A stretch of 64,000 bases of DNA from positions 32,001 through 96,000 of the IMG/VR virus record IMGVR_UViG_3300025872_000037, one strand, 5' to 3'. The notes under the pieces were generated by a model. It was not told the DNA's origin, made no database searches, and worked only from the letters and a program-made list of their open reading frames with translations. How positions within the stretch are numbered: position 1 is the first letter of the stretch; each line of letters starts with the position of its first letter. A program made the translations under genes and the position numbers. Below, one piece after another: positions 35,311 through 42,548 of the stretch. This DNA is from a virus.

Positions 35311-35934
35311 ATGAACCACAAACCTTTGTTATCAAGCCCGATCGCCGAGATGCTGGGTGTCGACAAGAAGAATCAGGCCGCCTTTACCGATAAGGCACTC
35401 GCCCATCTTCACGAGTACTACATCACTGGCACCATCGAGGAGGCCAACAAGTACACCGAATGGTTCAACCAGATCCGGCACGCCCCGCCGACTGACATCA
35501 TCAAGCTTTACATCAACTCAGAGGGTGGTAGCCTCTGGACGGCGATTCAGTTCATGCGAGTCATCCGAGAGTGCAAGGCTCCGGTAGTTGCTTCGGTTGA
35601 AGGCGCTTGCATGAGTGCGGCCACGATCATCTTCCTGATGTCTGATACCTACGAGATCTCTCCACACTCGATGTTCATGTTCCACAACTATTCAGGTGGC
35701 ACCATCGGAAAGGGTGGCGAGATGATCGACCAGATCAAGCACGAGCGAGTCTGGTCCGAGAAGCTTCTCTTCGAGATCTACCAGAACTTTTTGACGGATG
35801 CCGAGATACGAGCGATCCTGGAGAACAAGGACATCTGGATGACCGCGGAGGAAGTTGTTTCACGATTGAACAAGAAGGCCAAGATTCTGGCCAAGAAGAA
35901 GATCAAGAGTACCAAGGGGTTGGATACCAACTAG
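35311..35934 (+). CDS. ClpP-like serine protease
   Basis: INSEGG, CMSAAT (Ser), MFH (His), DIWMTAEE. Confidence 0.9.
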   Translation: MNHKPLLSSPIAEMLGVDKKNQAAFTDKALAHLHEYYITGTIEEANKYTEWFNQIRHAPPTDIIKLYINSEGGSLWTAIQFMRVIRECKAPVVASVEGACMSAATIIFLMSDTYEISPHSMFMFHNYSGGTIGKGGEMIDQIKHERVWSEKLLFEIYQNFLTDAEIRAILENKDIWMTAEEVVSRLNKKAKILAKKKIKSTKGLDTN

Positions 35935-36717: not shown

Positions 36718-36945
36718 GTGTATACCCACAACGCCACCACCGCCCGACTCATTGCGGCAGGCATCTTGCCTGATCCCAACTTCGTTCCTCGCGAGACCAA
36801 GGTCAACCGGTTTGGCGTGATGATCTGGGACCACAAGACCGCCGGGCATTGTCAGGTCCTCTCCGGCGAGAGCTGGAAGCAGGCCCGCAAGTACAACGTC
36901 CCCCGCAAGGGTTTCAGCTCGGTCGTCAAGTCGATCACCGGTTAA
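36718..36945 (+). CDS. hypothetical protein
   Basis: GTG start right after the previous stop. Confidence 0.55.
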   Translation: MYTHNATTARLIAAGILPDPNFVPRETKVNRFGVMIWDHKTAGHCQVLSGESWKQARKYNVPRKGFSSVVKSITG

Positions 36946-36951
36946 TCCGTT

Positions 36952-37027
36952 GGTCGCGTAGCCCAACGGCAGAGGCAGGAGACTTAAAATCTCTTCAGTG
37001 TGGGTTCGAATCCCACCGCGACTACCA
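36952..37027 (+). tRNA. tRNA-Leu(TAA), short variable arm
   Basis: Cloverleaf, anticodon loop CTTAAAA, GTTCGAAT, encoded CCA. Confidence 0.9.
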
Positions 37028-37032
37028 TCACC

Positions 37033-37683
37033 ATGGTACCTGTAGATCCATCAGAGAAGACAACTCTCGTACTCAACCGAAACTACCAGTCAAGCGGTAG
37101 GTTCTTCACCGCGCGCGCCGCCATTCGTCACATGATGAATGGCCGAGTCAAGGGGCTTGATGCCGTGGGTAACTGCGCATCCTGGAACGGTGACGAGGTG
37201 ACAGAGGTCGAGGGCTACTCGAATAGCCTGAGCTGGGCGGATCTGACGGTTGAACTGTACCATGACCAGCCTTGCCTTCGGTCAGCACCTAACGTCGTGA
37301 CCGGAGAGGAGACTCAGTGGCCGGTGCCGACCATCGTGGTCTGTACCCATCATTTCGGTTATCATGCCAGGTTAGGCCAGAACGTGTCCCTGAAGACCAT
37401 CTATGGCCTTTACAAGGGAGTCTGCCAGTACTGTCTTCAGAAAGTTCCTTTCTCAGCATCCACCAAGGACCATGTCTATCCAAAGTCCATGGGTGGTACA
37501 AATGACCAGCAGAACATTGTGCTGGCATGCCGGTCCTGCAATTCGGCCAAGGACAACTCGTACCCTTACCTAAACGTCAATGGTGAAGAGGTCAGACCGA
37601 GGTCAGCCCACCATTTCCTCAGTATGATCCCTGATGGGATGCAGATGCGAGAGGAATGGAAACAATTTTTGTTCGTTCACTAA
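37033..37683 (+). CDS. HNH endonuclease
   Basis: LVLN..Y, CQYC, DHVYPKSMGG, N.V.AC..CN. Confidence 0.9.
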   Translation: MVPVDPSEKTTLVLNRNYQSSGRFFTARAAIRHMMNGRVKGLDAVGNCASWNGDEVTEVEGYSNSLSWADLTVELYHDQPCLRSAPNVVTGEETQWPVPTIVVCTHHFGYHARLGQNVSLKTIYGLYKGVCQYCLQKVPFSASTKDHVYPKSMGGTNDQQNIVLACRSCNSAKDNSYPYLNVNGEEVRPRSAHHFLSMIPDGMQMREEWKQFLFVH

Positions 37684-37720
37684 TCTTTTTTGTTTACAAC
37701 GGTCAGAAAACATGATTGAG

Positions 37721-37728
37721 TATAAATA
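37721..37728 (+). promoter_or_regulatory. late promoter (plus upstream TTTACA..CATGAT sigma70-like promoter) for the RNA island
   Basis: TATAAATA at 37721; TTTACA at about 37693. Confidence 0.7.
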
Positions 37729-37736
37729 ATCAAATC

Positions 37737-37844
37737 TTGAAAAGCTTCAAACAAACCACAGACTCAAATACGTCAATCCGACCAACAATCGGATGGGCAC
37801 CTGTCTGTGGCCGCAATGAAGCCGCATTCGGGGGTTCGAAATAG
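37737..37844 (+). CDS. putative attenuator leader peptide (35 aa)
   Basis: TTG start; MKSFKQTTDSNTSIRPTIGWAPVCGRNEAAFGGSK*; stop lies inside the antiterminator arm. Confidence 0.5.
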   Translation: MKSFKQTTDSNTSIRPTIGWAPVCGRNEAAFGGSK

Positions 37845-37870
37845 AGATCACAATTTAGATCTCTTCTTCG

Positions 37871-37900
37871 AACCTCTGAACCAAAAGTTCAGAGGTTTTT
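37871..37900 (+). terminator. intrinsic terminator competing with an upstream antiterminator hairpin (37831-37876)
   Basis: AACCTCTGAAC-CAAAA-GTTCAGAGGTT-TTT. Confidence 0.75.
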
Positions 37901-38362
37901 AGTTTCACCGCCAGACTCCGGCTTCAAGGAGTCCAAACGACCGACATAGGGGGATCCAATCCGCGCCCTGAAAGCGCGATAGGGACCGAAGCAATTCGTT
38001 CTTTTTAGATAAAACCGAGCGGCCCCGGACGCTCATTAAAATAATTCGCCGGGCTTCTTTCCTGCCTGCACTGAAGTACGGGTTCATTCCGAGAAGCAGA
38101 AATGCTCTAGGTGCAGGTGGGACTATTTTGCGGCCAGTTTCGACTGGCAGGTGCAACCGCAGTAACGGGTTCTGCGCAAACAAAAACCCGGCCAATTTCC
38201 CGAAGCACGATTCGGACTCACAGATAGGTTGAAGATGGCAATGTAGCTTTGCCACCGATCTCACTGTCATCCTCATAACCCACACCGCGGGGCTACACGG
38301 TGTGGTGTCTTACTGAGGTGACTGAGCTCGGCCTCGTAAAGCTGTGAGCGGGAATTCATTTT

Positions 38363-38437
38363 GCCCTTGTAGCTCAGTGGTAGAGCGCCAGTTTTGTAAA
38401 CTGGATGTCGTCGGTTCAAGCCCGACCGGGGGCTCCA
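38363..38437 (+). tRNA. tRNA-Thr(TGT)
   Basis: Cloverleaf, CCAGT-TTTGTAA-ACTGG, CCA. Confidence 0.95.
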
Positions 38438-38523
38438 TTTTCGTCCGCTTGTCTAGCGGGTTCGACGCGGTCGGTGCGATACGGTCCGCGATACCAAAAG
38501 CCTTAACCGTGTCGCCAATTTAT

Positions 38524-38651
38524 CTCCGAGAGAGGGTGAGTGAACACCTCCGTTAGCGGTAGAACTTCAATGATGCTAACGGGTATGAGCCACACGAAGT
38601 AGAGAATTGAAGCTCGAACGTGTTATAGCAGCTTAATCAGCTGCCTCGGAG
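38524..38651 (+). ncRNA. tRNA-like RNA (acceptor + T-arm mimic with long insert)
   Basis: CTCCGAG/CTCGGAG 7-bp stem stacked on GCAGC-7 nt-GCTGC. Confidence 0.4.
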
Positions 38652-38658
38652 TCCCTTT

Positions 38659-38733
38659 GAGTGTGTAGTGTAACGGTCAGCACCGGCTAGCCTGCGGGCC
38701 CTGTGAGTGCGGGTTCGACTCCCGTCACACTCA
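38659..38733 (+). tRNA. atypical tRNA / pseudo-tRNA, anticodon undetermined
   Basis: GAGTGTG/CACACTC acceptor, normal D and T arms, irregular anticodon arm, no CCA. Confidence 0.6.
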
Positions 38734-38745
38734 ATTCATTTCTGC

Positions 38746-38822
38746 GCGCCAGTGTCGTTGAACGGTTAAACAGCTGTCTGCAAAGCAGCAAAATGCAGGT
38801 TCGATTCCTGTCTGGCGCTCCA
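38746..38822 (+). tRNA. tRNA-Cys(GCA)
   Basis: GCTGT-CTGCAAA-GCAGC, U73, CCA. Confidence 0.88.
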
Positions 38823-38828
38823 ATTTAC

Positions 38829-38920
38829 GGAAGAGTGGCTGAGTGGGTTAAGGCAACGGTCTTGAAAACCGTCGTGGCGTATAGTCGTCACCGTGAGTTC
38901 GAATCTCACCTCTTCCGCCA
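38829..38920 (+). tRNA. tRNA-Ser(TGA)
   Basis: Long variable arm, CTTGAAA loop, GCCA. Confidence 0.95.
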
Positions 38921-39069
38921 TTTTATAGAGAGTTAAGGGCACTGCTACCGGACGATCGCGGTAGGTTCACGTAGCTTAATAAGCACACATAGCTAAACAC
39001 TCTCTTCTTTTTAGCCTCCACTTGAGGGTGAACCACAGAGCTGGGGTAGATGAATCCAGCAGGCTATTT

Positions 39070-39153
39070 GCACTAGTGATGGAACGGCAGACATGAAAGT
39101 CTTAGAAGCTTTTGCCGCGAGGCGTACAGGTTCAAGTCCTGTCTAGTGCACCA
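39070..39153 (+). tRNA. tRNA-Leu(TAG)
   Basis: CTTAGAA loop, variable arm, ACCA. Confidence 0.93.
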
Positions 39154-39162
39154 ACAATTTTA

Positions 39163-39238
39163 GGGCCATTAGCTCATTTGGCAGAGCGCCTGATTTGCAT
39201 TCAGGAGGTGAGCGGTTCGACCCCGCTATGGTCCACCA
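39163..39238 (+). tRNA. tRNA-Ala(TGC)
   Basis: TTTGCAT loop, G3-U70, ACCA. Confidence 0.95.
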
Positions 39239-39242
39239 CTTT

Positions 39243-39351
39243 GGTGTAGGGTTAAGACGGTTCGAATCCGTCGTCGCCTTTGGATCGGCGCTAGTAAACC
39301 GTTTTGGACAAGGCGAGCGCTCGCTGATAAGGTTCGAACCCTTACACACCA
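39243..39351 (+). ncRNA. tRNA-like RNA with two T-arms, CCA end
   Basis: GACGG-TTCGAAT-CCGTC and TAAGG-TTCGAAC-CCTTA; GGTGT/ACACC closure. Confidence 0.5.
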
Positions 39352-39515
39352 ATCTATTCCTGCTGGGGCTCTGATCAGAGCGCGCATAACGAGGAGCATC
39401 ACCTCGAGAGTCCACGAACAGCAGGATTCAATTTATGCCGGCACGGTCAATCGCGAGACTGGTTAAAATCAGACGAGAGTGTACTGATACCGAAAATGCC
39501 GGCACCAATTTCTAC

Positions 39516-39590
39516 ACGGACGTGGTACATTAGTAGTGCAGCAGTCTCCAAAACTGCCTTATGGGGGTGCGATTCCCTCCGTCCGTGCCA
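39516..39590 (+). tRNA. tRNA-Trp(CCA)
   Basis: GCAGT-CTCCAAA-ACTGC, GCCA. Confidence 0.9.
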
Positions 39591-39596
39591 TTTTAC

Positions 39597-39673
39597 GGGG
39601 TGGTAGCTCAGCTGGTTAGAGCGTCTGCCTGTCACGCAGAAGGTCGCGGGATCGAGGCCCGTCCATCCCGCCA
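39597..39673 (+). tRNA. tRNA-Asp(GTC)
   Basis: CTGTCAC loop, GCCA. Confidence 0.95.
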
Positions 39674-39678
39674 TTTTT

Positions 39679-39753
39679 GCCGCCATCGTCTAACGGTCAG
39701 GACAGCGGGTTTTCATCTCGCTAATCGGGGTTCGATTCCCCGTGGTGGTACCA
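39679..39753 (+). tRNA. tRNA-Glu(TTC)
   Basis: TTTTCAT loop, CCA. Confidence 0.93.
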
Positions 39754-39786
39754 TTTTTACGTATGTTATAAATAGGTCATAAGTTT

Positions 39787-40227
39787 ATGACCAAAAACGA
39801 AAAAATTAGTCAAGCATTAAAGAAGCGTTTTAGCAAACAGCCGCATCACAAAAAAGGTAAAGCTGGTAAAAAGCACGATAAAATCGCAAAGCAAAAAATA
39901 CGCGAAGCTTTAATAAAACATTATGATTCTGCAGGAAGAATGTCCGATGCGCAGAAAAAAGCACGCAATAAAGCTAATGTTTATGCTTACAGAGCTAGAA
40001 AACGAAATGCGATACCAGAAAATGCAAATTTAGCTCTAATAAAACTAATTTATGAAAAATGTCCAGAAGGTTATCACGTAGATCATATAATTGCATTGGC
40101 ATCTGGAGGTCTACACCATCAAGATAATCTTCAATATTTACCTATTGCGGAAAATTGCCGCAAAGGTAAAAGCAATAATTACAATTCTTCTTTAGCCAAA
40201 GATTGGCGAGATTTTATTGGCATGTAG
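39787..40227 (+). mobile_element. free-standing HNH homing endonuclease gene inside the tRNA array
   Basis: YHVDHIIAL..GGLH...NLQYL...N; strongly AT-rich; own TATAAATA at 39767. Confidence 0.85.
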
Positions 40228-40292
40228 TTCAATGGTAGAACCCGCGACTGTTAATCGCGCAATTGGTTGTTCGACTCAACCCATGCCAGCCA
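40218..40292 (+). tRNA. tRNA-Asn(GTT)
   Basis: CTGTTAA loop, GCCA. Confidence 0.92.
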
Positions 40293-40302
40293 GTTTATTT
40301 TT

Positions 40303-40379
40303 CGGCGCGTAGCACAGCCTGGTAGTGCACTTGCTTTGGGAGCAAGCCGTCGGGGGTTCGAATCCCTCCGCGCCGACCA
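40303..40379 (+). tRNA. tRNA-Pro(TGG)
   Basis: TTTGGGA loop, C1-G72, ACCA. Confidence 0.95.
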
Positions 40380-40386
40380 TTTTCGA

Positions 40387-40461
40387 TGGCCCATTGTGTA
40401 ATGGTTAGCACAGCTGACTTTGACTCAGCTAGTTGGGGTTCGAGTCCCTGTGGGCCAGCCA
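40387..40461 (+). tRNA. tRNA-Gln(TTG)
   Basis: CTTTGAC loop, U1-A72, GCCA. Confidence 0.93.
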
Positions 40462-40815
40462 ATTTGAGCAGAGTCCTAGCTGTTCGTAAAACAGGAGCCG
40501 GTGTGATCGGTATTGCCGTTGTTCAGCGGGTAACCGTGCGCGGGAGAATCGGGTGCTGCTCTTTTTACTTTATGAAAAAACCTGAAAACTTATCACAGAT
40601 CCTTCTAGTTATCCTGGCGGTCATCGCCGATATTTTCTTAATCGTAAACGTCATCCATCACTGGTGACATGATCACTCGTCTCGTTCAATTAGTGTTTCT
40701 TTCCGTTCTCATTCCGGCTGCGATCTCAGCATTTTTGATCGTGGCCGTTACGTTAACTGCAAGCATCGTGGTAGGATTTCTGGTCCTATTCCACAGATTG
40801 CTCTCGTAGCTTCTT

Positions 40816-40891
40816 GGTCCTGTAGCTCAATGGTCAGAGCAGAGGACTCATAATCCTTTGGTTGTGGGTTCAAGTCCCACCGGGACCACCA
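40816..40891 (+). tRNA. tRNA-Ile2 or elongator Met (CAT)
   Basis: CTCATAA loop, ACCA. Confidence 0.9.
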
Positions 40892-40906
40892 TATATACTT
40901 TTGTAC

Positions 40907-40982
40907 GCGGTAGTAGCTCAGTTGGTAGAGCGCCATCCTTCCAAGCTGGTTGTCGCAGGTTCGAATCCTGTCTGCCGCTCCA
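40907..40982 (+). tRNA. tRNA-Gly(TCC)
   Basis: CTTCCAA loop, U73, CCA; one anticodon-stem mismatch. Confidence 0.92.
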
Positions 40983-40991
40983 ATTTACTTG

Positions 40992-41068
40992 GTCCTCGTA
41001 GCTCAACCGGAAAGAGCACCGTTTTTCTAAATCGGTGGTTGTGGGTTCGAGTCCCGCCGTGGACGCCA
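40992..41068 (+). tRNA. tRNA-Arg(TCT)
   Basis: TTTCTAA loop, GCCA; stem mismatches. Confidence 0.88.
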
Positions 41069-41164
41069 TTTTGACTTTGCGAGGAATCGCAAATGGTGGA
41101 GGGGTAATCCCAACACCCCCTGGAAGTGGGAAGCGCATACTTAAATCACGCTTAACTAATTTTT

Positions 41165-41541
41165 GGGCCTGTTCTGGATTCTATTCAGTGACAGACTTAT
41201 TGTAAGCAAGCATGGTTGCTGGACCATTCAACATCAGCAAAAACACAAACGGCATCTCAAATGTCATCGAGGCGATCTTCGGTACTCGTACCGAGGAGCT
41301 TCAGCTCGCAGCCTAAGAAACTGTGACCGACACGTCGTCCGATTCTCGCTGAGTCGACGGTCGTCATCAAGCGAGACTGATCTTCGAGAATTGTGGCTCG
41401 GTAGAAGAATCAGTACACTCTAGCCATTACGCCAGGAGAGTTGATAGCGACAGCTCCTGGCATGATCACAGCTATCTAAGCTTGTAGAAAACGATCGGAA
41501 AAGCACTGAACACACGGGTTCGACTCCCGTCAGGTCCACCA
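41165..41541 (+). ncRNA. ssrA: tmRNA
   Basis: GGGCCTG/CAGGTCC-ACCA with G3-U, T-arm GGTTCGACTCC, pk1, tag ORF 41251-41316 GISNVIEAIFGTRTEELQLAA*. Confidence 0.93.
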
Positions 41542-41700
41542 CTATTCCTTCGGTAACTTACGAAGGCAGACTAATCCCTCGACGAAGACTACCTCAAACC
41601 TGTCGCCGTCCTCAACTCTGAGCATGGCGGGTGTGAGTTCTTCATCAAAGAAAAGTGAGCCATCAGTGGTAAGTCTGAGGTCGTATCCGTGGAATCTCAT
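41542..41700 (-). CDS. small hypothetical protein (52 aa)
   Basis: Read by hand: MRFHGYDLRLTTDGSLFFDEELTPAMLRVEDGDRFEV...; AAAGGA RBS and CATAAATA upstream. Confidence 0.6.
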   Translation of the reverse strand: MRFHGYDLRLTTDGSLFFDEELTPAMLRVEDGDRFEVVFVEGLVCLRKLPKE

Positions 41701-41811
41701 GGGTGTTCCTTTCTATTTATGAAATGCTTAGAATTCGTTCACTTTTTTGTTTACAGGGTCATGCGGCAGTGTATGATCTGATCATAGTCAATTTTGTTCT
41801 TTTTCAACTTT

Positions 41812-42058
41812 TGTGACGGAATAAGCCTTTTCCTTAGGGCTAACGTATAACCACGGTGAAGAACCGCGGTTAGTTCCGGGACTTGTAAGTAAGTAAGGTA
41901 CTACGCTGAGGCCTAGGTTGGCCAACCGAAGCTACCAGAGGTACGGGTTGTAAGCATGAAATATCATGATATGGCGACTCGTTACGGTGCGACGGCACCA
42001 TCTGACTGAATAACTGAAGGCAAGTTCCCCGGATGGAGGTAATCATTAGTCCTCCCAA
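41812..42058 (+). ncRNA. unidentified structured RNA
   Basis: ORF-free; own TTTACA..TATGAT promoter; CCGGGACTTG/CAAGTTCCCCGG long-range stem. Confidence 0.4.
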
Positions 42059-42473
42059 TTTTTACTTTCGAGGCTTGATCTCCTCGAAACCCTCTCCCTT
42101 AGCAGCATTCACTAATCTATTGTCTGCACGGATGTTCGGTAGGGAACAAATGCTGGTAATGATGAAATAGACATCGGCTGGCACTACACGACAACGCTAC
42201 TGTGAGAGGGTACTCTTTCATCATACTCGACTAGGCGAGTCTAAATAGAAGAATAGGCCTAGTGCGGCAGATGCATCAGTGCGTAGCGCAAAGTGCATCT
42301 GCGACTTGCCACGCCACAGCTCCGGTGAGCTCAGGATTAAAGCTAAAAGCGCTGTGTGAATAAACACGAGGACAAAAATTGGCTAATGTATATCTCATAT
42401 GGCCGATAAATAAATCTCGTTGCGATAAGATATTCGCCAGCGTGGCACCTCTTTCAAGTTCTTTTCAATTTAT

Positions 42474-42548
42474 TGCAGTGTGGAGCAGTGGCAGCTCGCT
42501 TGGCTCATAACCAAGAGGTCAGGGGTTCGATTCCCTTCTCTGCACCCA
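42474..42548 (+). tRNA. tRNA-Met(CAT), initiator-like
   Basis: fMet-type D arm TGGAGCAG..GCTCG, CTCATAA loop, CCA. Confidence 0.88.

Follow-up and report, generated by a model that had tools for sequence, protein, structure and literature searches.

A conserved terminator/antiterminator element with a short leader reading frame, probably a leader-peptide attenuator, at the head of a phage RNA island

The window analysed here is a stretch of 64,000 nucleotides (nt) from an uncultured freshwater phage, corresponding to bases 32001-96000 of the 128-kb virus record IMGVR_UViG_3300025872_000037. The nearest matches of its ribonucleotide reductase (58-65% identity) are from phages of Agrobacterium, Sinorhizobium, Rhodobacter and Ruegeria. 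All 17 transfer RNA (tRNA) genes of the record and its transfer-messenger RNA (tmRNA) gene are in a single plus-strand island (window positions 36952-42548, identified using ARAGORN and Rfam), and 16 of the 17 tRNAs lie downstream of an intrinsic terminator. Here we describe the element of about 180 nt that ends in this terminator and also includes a short open reading frame (ORF) and two hairpins. A reading of the window made from the sequence only had proposed that the element is a leader-peptide attenuator gating the island. On the evidence presented below, we consider it fairly likely that this is a ribosome-mediated (leader-peptide) transcription attenuator heading the RNA, tRNA and tmRNA island, and that ribosome speed probably sets how much transcription enters the tRNA genes.

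A promoter-like region is followed by the ORF, hairpin 1, hairpin 2 and the terminator (Table 1). The ORF is present with the translation given in the sequence-only reading; its start codon is TTG, not ATG. It begins 8 nt behind a TATAAATA box, with no preceding Shine-Dalgarno sequence. The hairpin of about 17 base pairs that had been described around the last codons of the ORF exists, but is larger, with 13 + 7 pairs (37828-37840 with 37867-37879, and 37843-37849 with 37858-37864), and the UAG stop (37842-37844) is inside its 5' arm. The strong intrinsic terminator was correctly recognized. Hairpin 2 and the terminator had been regarded as mutually exclusive because both use AACCTC; the overlap is real, but extends over 10 nt (37870-37879) rather than 6, the 5' arm of the terminator being 37870-37881. 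The region 37725-37910 folds far better than shuffled versions of itself (z = -7.4; 0 of 200 shuffles as good). As proposed, the RNA island is immediately downstream, with a conserved RNA directly behind the terminator from 37901 and tRNA-Thr at 38363.

Table 1. Features of the leader element and its surroundings, in window coordinates
Feature	Position	Strand	Remarks
HNH endonuclease gene	37000-37683		Between tRNA-Leu and the leader/island promoter; Pfam HNH
TTTACA, -35-like hexamer	37693-37698	+	T(T/G)TAC(A/T) in most relatives
TATAAATA box, phage promoter-like element	37721-37728	+	Over-represented; kept in relatives
TATAAATA sites in the window	20216, 20640, 37721, 39767, 51023, 51027, 53234		16 sites in the 128-kb record
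Leader ORF	37737-37844	+	TTG, then 34 sense codons and TAG
Hairpin 1	37744-37822	+	Long irregular stem-loop inside the ORF; predicted fold
Hairpin 2, antiterminator	37828-37879	+	5' arm 37828-37849 with the stop; 3' arm 37858-37879; -31.8 kcal/mol
Intrinsic terminator	37870-37900	+	12-pair stem 37870-37898, 5-nt loop, TTTTT to 37900
Conserved structured RNA, about 150 nt	37901-38050	+	Immediately behind the terminator
tRNA genes (Thr to Arg) and tmRNA	38363-41541	+	ARAGORN, Rfam

Related loci were retrieved using the ClpP-like gene 1.8 kb upstream (35311-35934) as the query (80 of 284 viral stretches kept) and using a 30-nt motif of the downstream RNA (19 viral and 22 metagenome stretches). 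Counting the window, these viral and metagenome stretches comprise 26 different upstream sequences with the downstream RNA motif. The full layout, i.e., promoter-like region, ATAAATA box, short ORF, hairpin 1, stop-bearing hairpin 2 and overlapping terminator, is present in 21 of the 26. These 21 sequences represent about seven lineages (the window and L211; L005/L007; L023/L200; L027/L016/L191/L194; the L012-L026 group; L204/L205; L084/L197), between which BLAST aligns the terminator part only and not the leader bodies. The other five sequences (L002, L003, L008, L017 and L034) are leaderless, with the promoter-like region, including the box except in L034, adjoining the downstream RNA. Two of these, L002 and L003, are the closest relatives of the window (about 90% DNA identity in the flanks) and lack exactly the stretch from behind the box to 37900. 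In a search of 50,697 phage records, blastn of 36900-38500 for near matches returned only a tRNA-Thr match, in four records, and blastn of 37600-38365 for distant matches returned nothing; no cultured relative with the element was found there. The HNH endonuclease gene upstream is present in most relatives, and other sequence takes its place upstream of the leader in L012, L013 and L015. Thus, the leader is not part of an HNH element.

Both hairpin 2 and the terminator covary among relatives, a check that the sequence-only reading had proposed. The alignment used (A3) consists of 11 sequences, without L204, L205 and L016; an earlier MAFFT alignment (A2) had misaligned L204 and L205. For hairpin 2, 13 of the 23 pairs are changed on both sides and 80.6% of alignment cells are paired, compared with at most 48% in shifted registers; none of 500 shuffles scored as high. 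For the terminator, the corresponding values are 5 of 11 pairs and 91.7% of cells paired, compared with at most 69% in shifted registers and 0-1 of 500 shuffles as high. The columns shared by the two helices pair correctly in each of them. For example, in L211 the shared ACCUCU is ACCUCC, with a matching change in the 3' arm of the terminator. This pattern indicates selection on each of the two competing structures. A covariance model of hairpin 2 plus terminator (R1) identified one forward copy in 31 of the 100 sources searched, at the same place in each locus, and no copy elsewhere in the window or in more distant ClpP loci. The alignment from the R1 search (A5) also holds 27 reverse-strand images, which were not used for counts. 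A generic terminator pattern matched at least 107 unrelated stretches, and loci L095-L189 are outside the R1 search.

The element was compared across eight lineage representatives. All eight have an ORF of 22-34 sense codons that ends in TAA or TAG within the 5' arm of hairpin 2, starting with ATG in seven and TTG in the window, and in all eight the distance from the stop codon to the end of the T-run is 53-66 nt. The antiterminator and terminator overlap by 8-11 nt in 8/8, with local energies of -18 to -36 kcal/mol for the antiterminator and -12 to -19 kcal/mol for the terminator. A hairpin of unrelated sequence is found at the position of hairpin 1 in every representative; it may act as a pause site or spacer. 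Conservation in relatives of an upstream ORF with its stop in the antiterminator had been proposed as a check, and it is seen in all representatives, although the layout is absent from the closest relatives.

An ATG ORF of at least 20 codons that starts no more than 30 nt from the box and ends at the conserved stop is present in 7/8 representatives (8/8 if TTG is accepted). Mononucleotide shuffling of the ORF body yields such an ORF at a rate of 2.6-4.4% per lineage; shuffles that approximately retain dinucleotides mix poorly (1.4-11%) and were not relied on. Close relatives differ in length by whole codons (27 in L027, 26 in L016 and 25 in L023). By eye, the string TTCAAACAA is common to the window and L023 in different reading frames, yet both ORFs reach the same stop. 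Thus, openness of the frame is kept, not the peptide. Leader peptides share little between lineages, a PHROG search with eight of them matched no families, and four close variants of one lineage have similar numbers of synonymous and non-synonymous changes (by eye). From these comparisons, the bistable terminator/antiterminator element is real and conserved, and its leader ORF is maintained.

The sequence-only reading had also placed a promoter here, part of which stands. Most relatives have a -10-like hexamer (TAGGAT, TATGAT or TAATAT) 16-17 nt downstream of the -35-like hexamer, and the window is without it owing to a 12-nt gap relative to L023 (both by eye). In the window, TTTACA and the proposed CATGAT (37711-37716) are separated by only 12 nt, so this is not a canonical sigma-70 promoter, and a promoter scan of the window listed none at the leader. 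The TATAAATA box is a promoter-like element. It occurs seven times in the window compared with 0.6 expected (about a 12-fold excess), and for 7 of the 16 copies in the genome the ATG of an ORF of 95-408 amino acids follows 5-12 nt further downstream, without a Shine-Dalgarno sequence. Phage genes thus seem to be expressed with very short or no 5' leaders, and the distribution of the box suggests that it is a phage promoter yielding leaderless or near-leaderless mRNAs. Nearly all relatives keep the box as ATAAATA, whether the leader is present or not; L034 and L084/L197 have other promoter-like sequences instead. In five of the seven lineages with ATG, 5-9 nt separate the box from the leader ATG, a spacing that matches seven real genes of the phage genome (5-12 nt); in the L012-L026 lineage the distance is about 20 nt (both leader distances by eye). 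A scan between the terminator and the downstream RNA found no promoter-like site, and in four leaderless lineages the promoter directly adjoins this RNA. Consequently, transcription from the leader promoter must pass the terminator.

Folding of both conformers gave a predicted direction of the switch. The free RNA forms full hairpin 2 and no terminator in 11 of 13 sequences. Blocking of positions -15 to +13 around the stop, which mimics a terminating ribosome, leads to the terminator in 13/13 in the thermodynamic model. We found no segment that pairs with the 5' arm of hairpin 2 in a way that would force termination without translation. Taken with the constrained folds, this implies that efficient translation of the leader would terminate transcription and that slow or absent translation would allow read-through. 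The geometry and the direction of attenuation put forward earlier thus agree with the position of the stop in the antiterminator arm, the covariation of both helices and the outcome of the stop-blocked folds.

We infer the following mechanism. Transcription would start at the promoter-like region with the box, and the short ORF a few nt downstream would be translated during RNA synthesis. The ORF ends within the 5' arm of hairpin 2, and the 3' arm of this hairpin doubles as the 5' arm of the terminator. If the ribosome is not at the end of the ORF when the polymerase makes the terminator, hairpin 2 would form and transcription would continue into the RNA of about 150 nt and the tRNA genes. A ribosome at or near the stop would cover the 5' arm, the shared segment would then pair downstream to form the terminator, and the transcript would end near 37900. 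Fast decoding would shut the island off and slow decoding would open it, with ribosome position choosing the fold in response to a presumed ribosome-slowing signal.

The codon content of the leaders bears on what this signal may be. The commonest of 213 pooled leader codons from eight lineages are ACA (15), TCA (13), CCA (10), GCA (9) and CAA (8); in phage genes, four of these codons are at 1-2% each and GCA is at 2.7%. Codons ending in A account for 40% of the pooled leader codons compared with 20% in phage genes. This bias is periodic: upstream of the hairpin-2 arm, 76 of 165 in-frame codons (46%) end in A, compared with 88 of 314 (28%) in the other frames (Fisher P = 7e-5), and the in-frame count is highest or tied in all eight lineages. 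Exact cognates of the U34 tRNAs of the island (Thr-UGU, Ser-UGA, Pro-UGG, Ala-UGC and Gln-UUG) make up 60/165 codons in frame and 58/314 off frame. In the window alone this signal is weak (12/34 compared with a background of 0.24, P = 0.10). When wobble is allowed and every island tRNA is considered, the match in the window is not significant (18/34 leader codons compared with a background of 0.45, P = 0.23), and this comparison was rejected.

One possible, tentative reading is that the leader is a supply gauge for the tRNAs encoded behind it, with scarcity opening the island and accumulation closing it (negative feedback). When U34 tRNAs are scarce, the ribosome would lag, the antiterminator would form and the island would be transcribed; as tRNAs accumulate, the ribosome would reach the stop in time and the terminator would close the island. 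If so, the tRNA genes would be regulated by a decoding speed of their own making. However, Leu codons for the two tRNA-Leu of the island are nearly absent from the leaders, the leaders contain Lys, Phe, Ile and Val codons without a corresponding phage tRNA, and an A-rich 5' coding region could alternatively serve translation initiation. Given these points and the weak match in the window, we do not make feedback the main claim. A different signal, general failure of translation, had been suggested from the 16 different amino acids in the window peptide. This argument does not hold, as 15.2 distinct residues are expected by chance in 34 codons (P = 0.42) and diversity is unusual in only one of nine leaders tested (the L022 lineage, 18/29, P = 0.011).

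Several observations weigh against the attenuator interpretation. The TTG start of the window ORF is not preceded by a Shine-Dalgarno sequence, and if the mRNA is leaderless, such a non-AUG start would be poorly used. The two states of the window are nearly isoenergetic (-63.9 kcal/mol for the terminator plus truncated hairpin, -63.7 kcal/mol for the full hairpin), and in L084 and L197, the two exceptions among the folded sequences, the free RNA already folds the terminator. The switch is thus not equally clean everywhere. The element is dispensable, as it is lacking in 5/26 sequences, the closest relatives L002 and L003 among them. Leaders of the L012 type contain further ORFs of 20-30 codons in other frames. 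Because lineages share ancestry, the per-lineage probabilities for the ORF cannot simply be multiplied. Finally, none of the contigs from four RNA runs spans 37756-37839. Run X6 contains a 2,793-nt contig from a leaderless relative, which skips 37685-37901, and runs X1 and X7 have short, identical matches to the HNH gene, the stretch 38212-38349 and the tRNA region; these contigs are uninformative on termination or read-through in either direction. Given its TTG start, its near-isoenergetic states and the loss of the leader in its nearest relatives, the window copy looks like a weakened or leaky version of the element. It may be weakly translated and biased to read-through, which would fit the loss in relatives.

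The first alternative to consider is that the hairpin-2/terminator switch is set by a trans-acting factor (an RNA-binding protein of phage or host, a small RNA or a tRNA) and that the ORF is incidental or secondary. Covariation proves the two helices and not what chooses between them, hairpin 1 is kept in 8/8 lineages with no assigned role, and the TTG start of the window ORF is weak, all of which would suit such a factor. Yet neither the loops of hairpins 1 and 2 nor the unpaired stretches keep their sequence from one lineage to the next, which leaves no shared binding site or ligand pocket in view, and searches at E ≤ 10 gave no match to a T-box or riboswitch model. Such a factor would also leave unexplained why the ORF is kept, why its stop is fixed in position and why A is favoured at the third position in frame. 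We thus consider control by a trans-acting factor unlikely.

Alternatively, the structure could be a constitutive, partly leaky terminator that dampens or insulates transcription into the island, or the end of a small RNA or micropeptide gene of about 165 nt, with no condition-dependent regulation. A plain terminator would be compatible with the absence of the element from five sequences, but would have no need for a stronger, competing and covarying hairpin that shares 8-11 nt with it. A micropeptide is difficult to reconcile with the poor conservation of the peptides, their similar numbers of synonymous and non-synonymous changes and the lack of PHROG families for all eight peptides searched. 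In favour of a small RNA, the terminated product would be a stable structured RNA (z = -7.4), and attenuator-derived RNAs that act in trans are known (e.g., rnTrpL; PMC6614838). The short RNA could have such a trans-acting role alongside attenuation. Unregulated termination as the full explanation appears improbable to us.

That a structured spacer contains both the ORF and the overlap by chance, as the abundance of short ORFs in general and the additional 20-30-codon ORFs of L012-type leaders might suggest, is highly improbable and close to refuted by the comparative data: the fold has z = -7.4, an ORF expected in 3-4% of shuffles per lineage is present in 8/8, the covariation exceeds 500/500 shuffles and R1 has exactly one copy per locus at a constant place.

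The first product behind the terminator is itself strongly conserved. The RNA at 37901-38050 is nearly invariant among the window, L002, L005 and L007, and more conserved than neighbouring protein genes. It is also found in L008, L012, L017, L023, L034, L084, L204 and L211, in every case ahead of the first island tRNA. Its consensus fold from 12 sequences has 27 pairs, 8 of them with compensatory changes, and no Rfam family matched it at E ≤ 10. Between this RNA and tRNA-Thr, the window has about 235 nt (38125-38360) that are absent from L002, L005 and L007; part of this stretch, 38212-38349, recurs with a single difference on a contig from RNA run X7.

Other features of the island were also noted. 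The tRNA-like gene at 38658-38734 has an 8-nt anticodon loop and, according to ARAGORN, a four-base anticodon, CCUG. The same odd tRNA is present in the relatives L007, L191 and L194, and L027 has other four-base calls. The phage tmRNA (41165-41541) encodes the tag GISNVIEAIFGTRTEELQLAA. Behind it, at 41750-41777, TTTACA-16-TATGAT forms the one good sigma-70-like promoter in the island, a possible start of a second transcription unit. A match to the Pistol self-cleaving ribozyme was identified inside the island at 42225-42284 (36.9 bits compared with the Rfam gathering score of 34.5, E = 4.5e-4).

The tRNA islands of phages are generally regarded as cargo whose expression is constitutive or temporal. 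If the leader is an attenuator, phages would meter their output of tRNA, tmRNA and accessory RNA against the current decoding capacity of the cell. Such a gate might connect the tRNA genes of phages with tRNA-attacking host defences and with mismatch to host codon usage. The element is compact, and the leaderless relatives, in which the same promoter adjoins the same RNA, provide natural controls.

No leader (Trp, His, Thr, Leu, Phe and others), T-box or riboswitch family in Rfam matched 37690-37900 meaningfully at E ≤ 10; the best matches there are a microRNA model (21 bits, gathering score 62; opposite strand) and PsrR1 (17 bits, gathering score 42). Full-text searches, with subscription journals outside their scope, returned no account of leader-peptide control of tRNA genes in phage or cell. 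A leader attenuator of the E. coli tRNA-Phe genes, considered as a possible precedent, found no support in the literature searches and was dropped.

In layout, the element is close to the leader-peptide attenuators of amino-acid operons of the trpL, hisL and pheL type (described in general terms in PMC1183508). The shared features are a short ORF between promoter and genes, a hairpin inside the ORF, a stop from which a terminating ribosome would cover the 5' strand of the antiterminator, and a strand common to antiterminator and terminator. Unlike these systems, the phage element would gate RNA genes (the conserved RNA, tRNAs and tmRNA) rather than biosynthetic enzymes and has no run of one regulatory codon in its leader. 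It is also without 1:2-type pairing, so that untranslated RNA would default to read-through.

Two other systems are similar in logic. In the attenuator of mycobacterial whiB7, according to PMC10274678, knock-down of tRNA and tRNA synthetase activates whiB7. As proposed for the phage element, stalling in an upstream ORF of variable sequence leads to antitermination, and the codon content of this ORF sets what is sensed. However, whiB7 belongs to a cellular stress regulon and its upstream ORF is enriched in alanine, whereas the phage leader favours Thr, Ser, Pro, Gln and Ala codons that end in A, and its output would be tRNAs. In the vmlR leader of Bacillus subtilis, as set out in PMC9226507, ribosome stalling on a leader ORF selects an antiterminator over an intrinsic terminator, much as proposed for the phage element, and pausing of RNA polymerase tunes leakiness. 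vmlR adds an anti-antiterminator layer and answers specific antibiotics, whereas the phage element shows only two competing helices.

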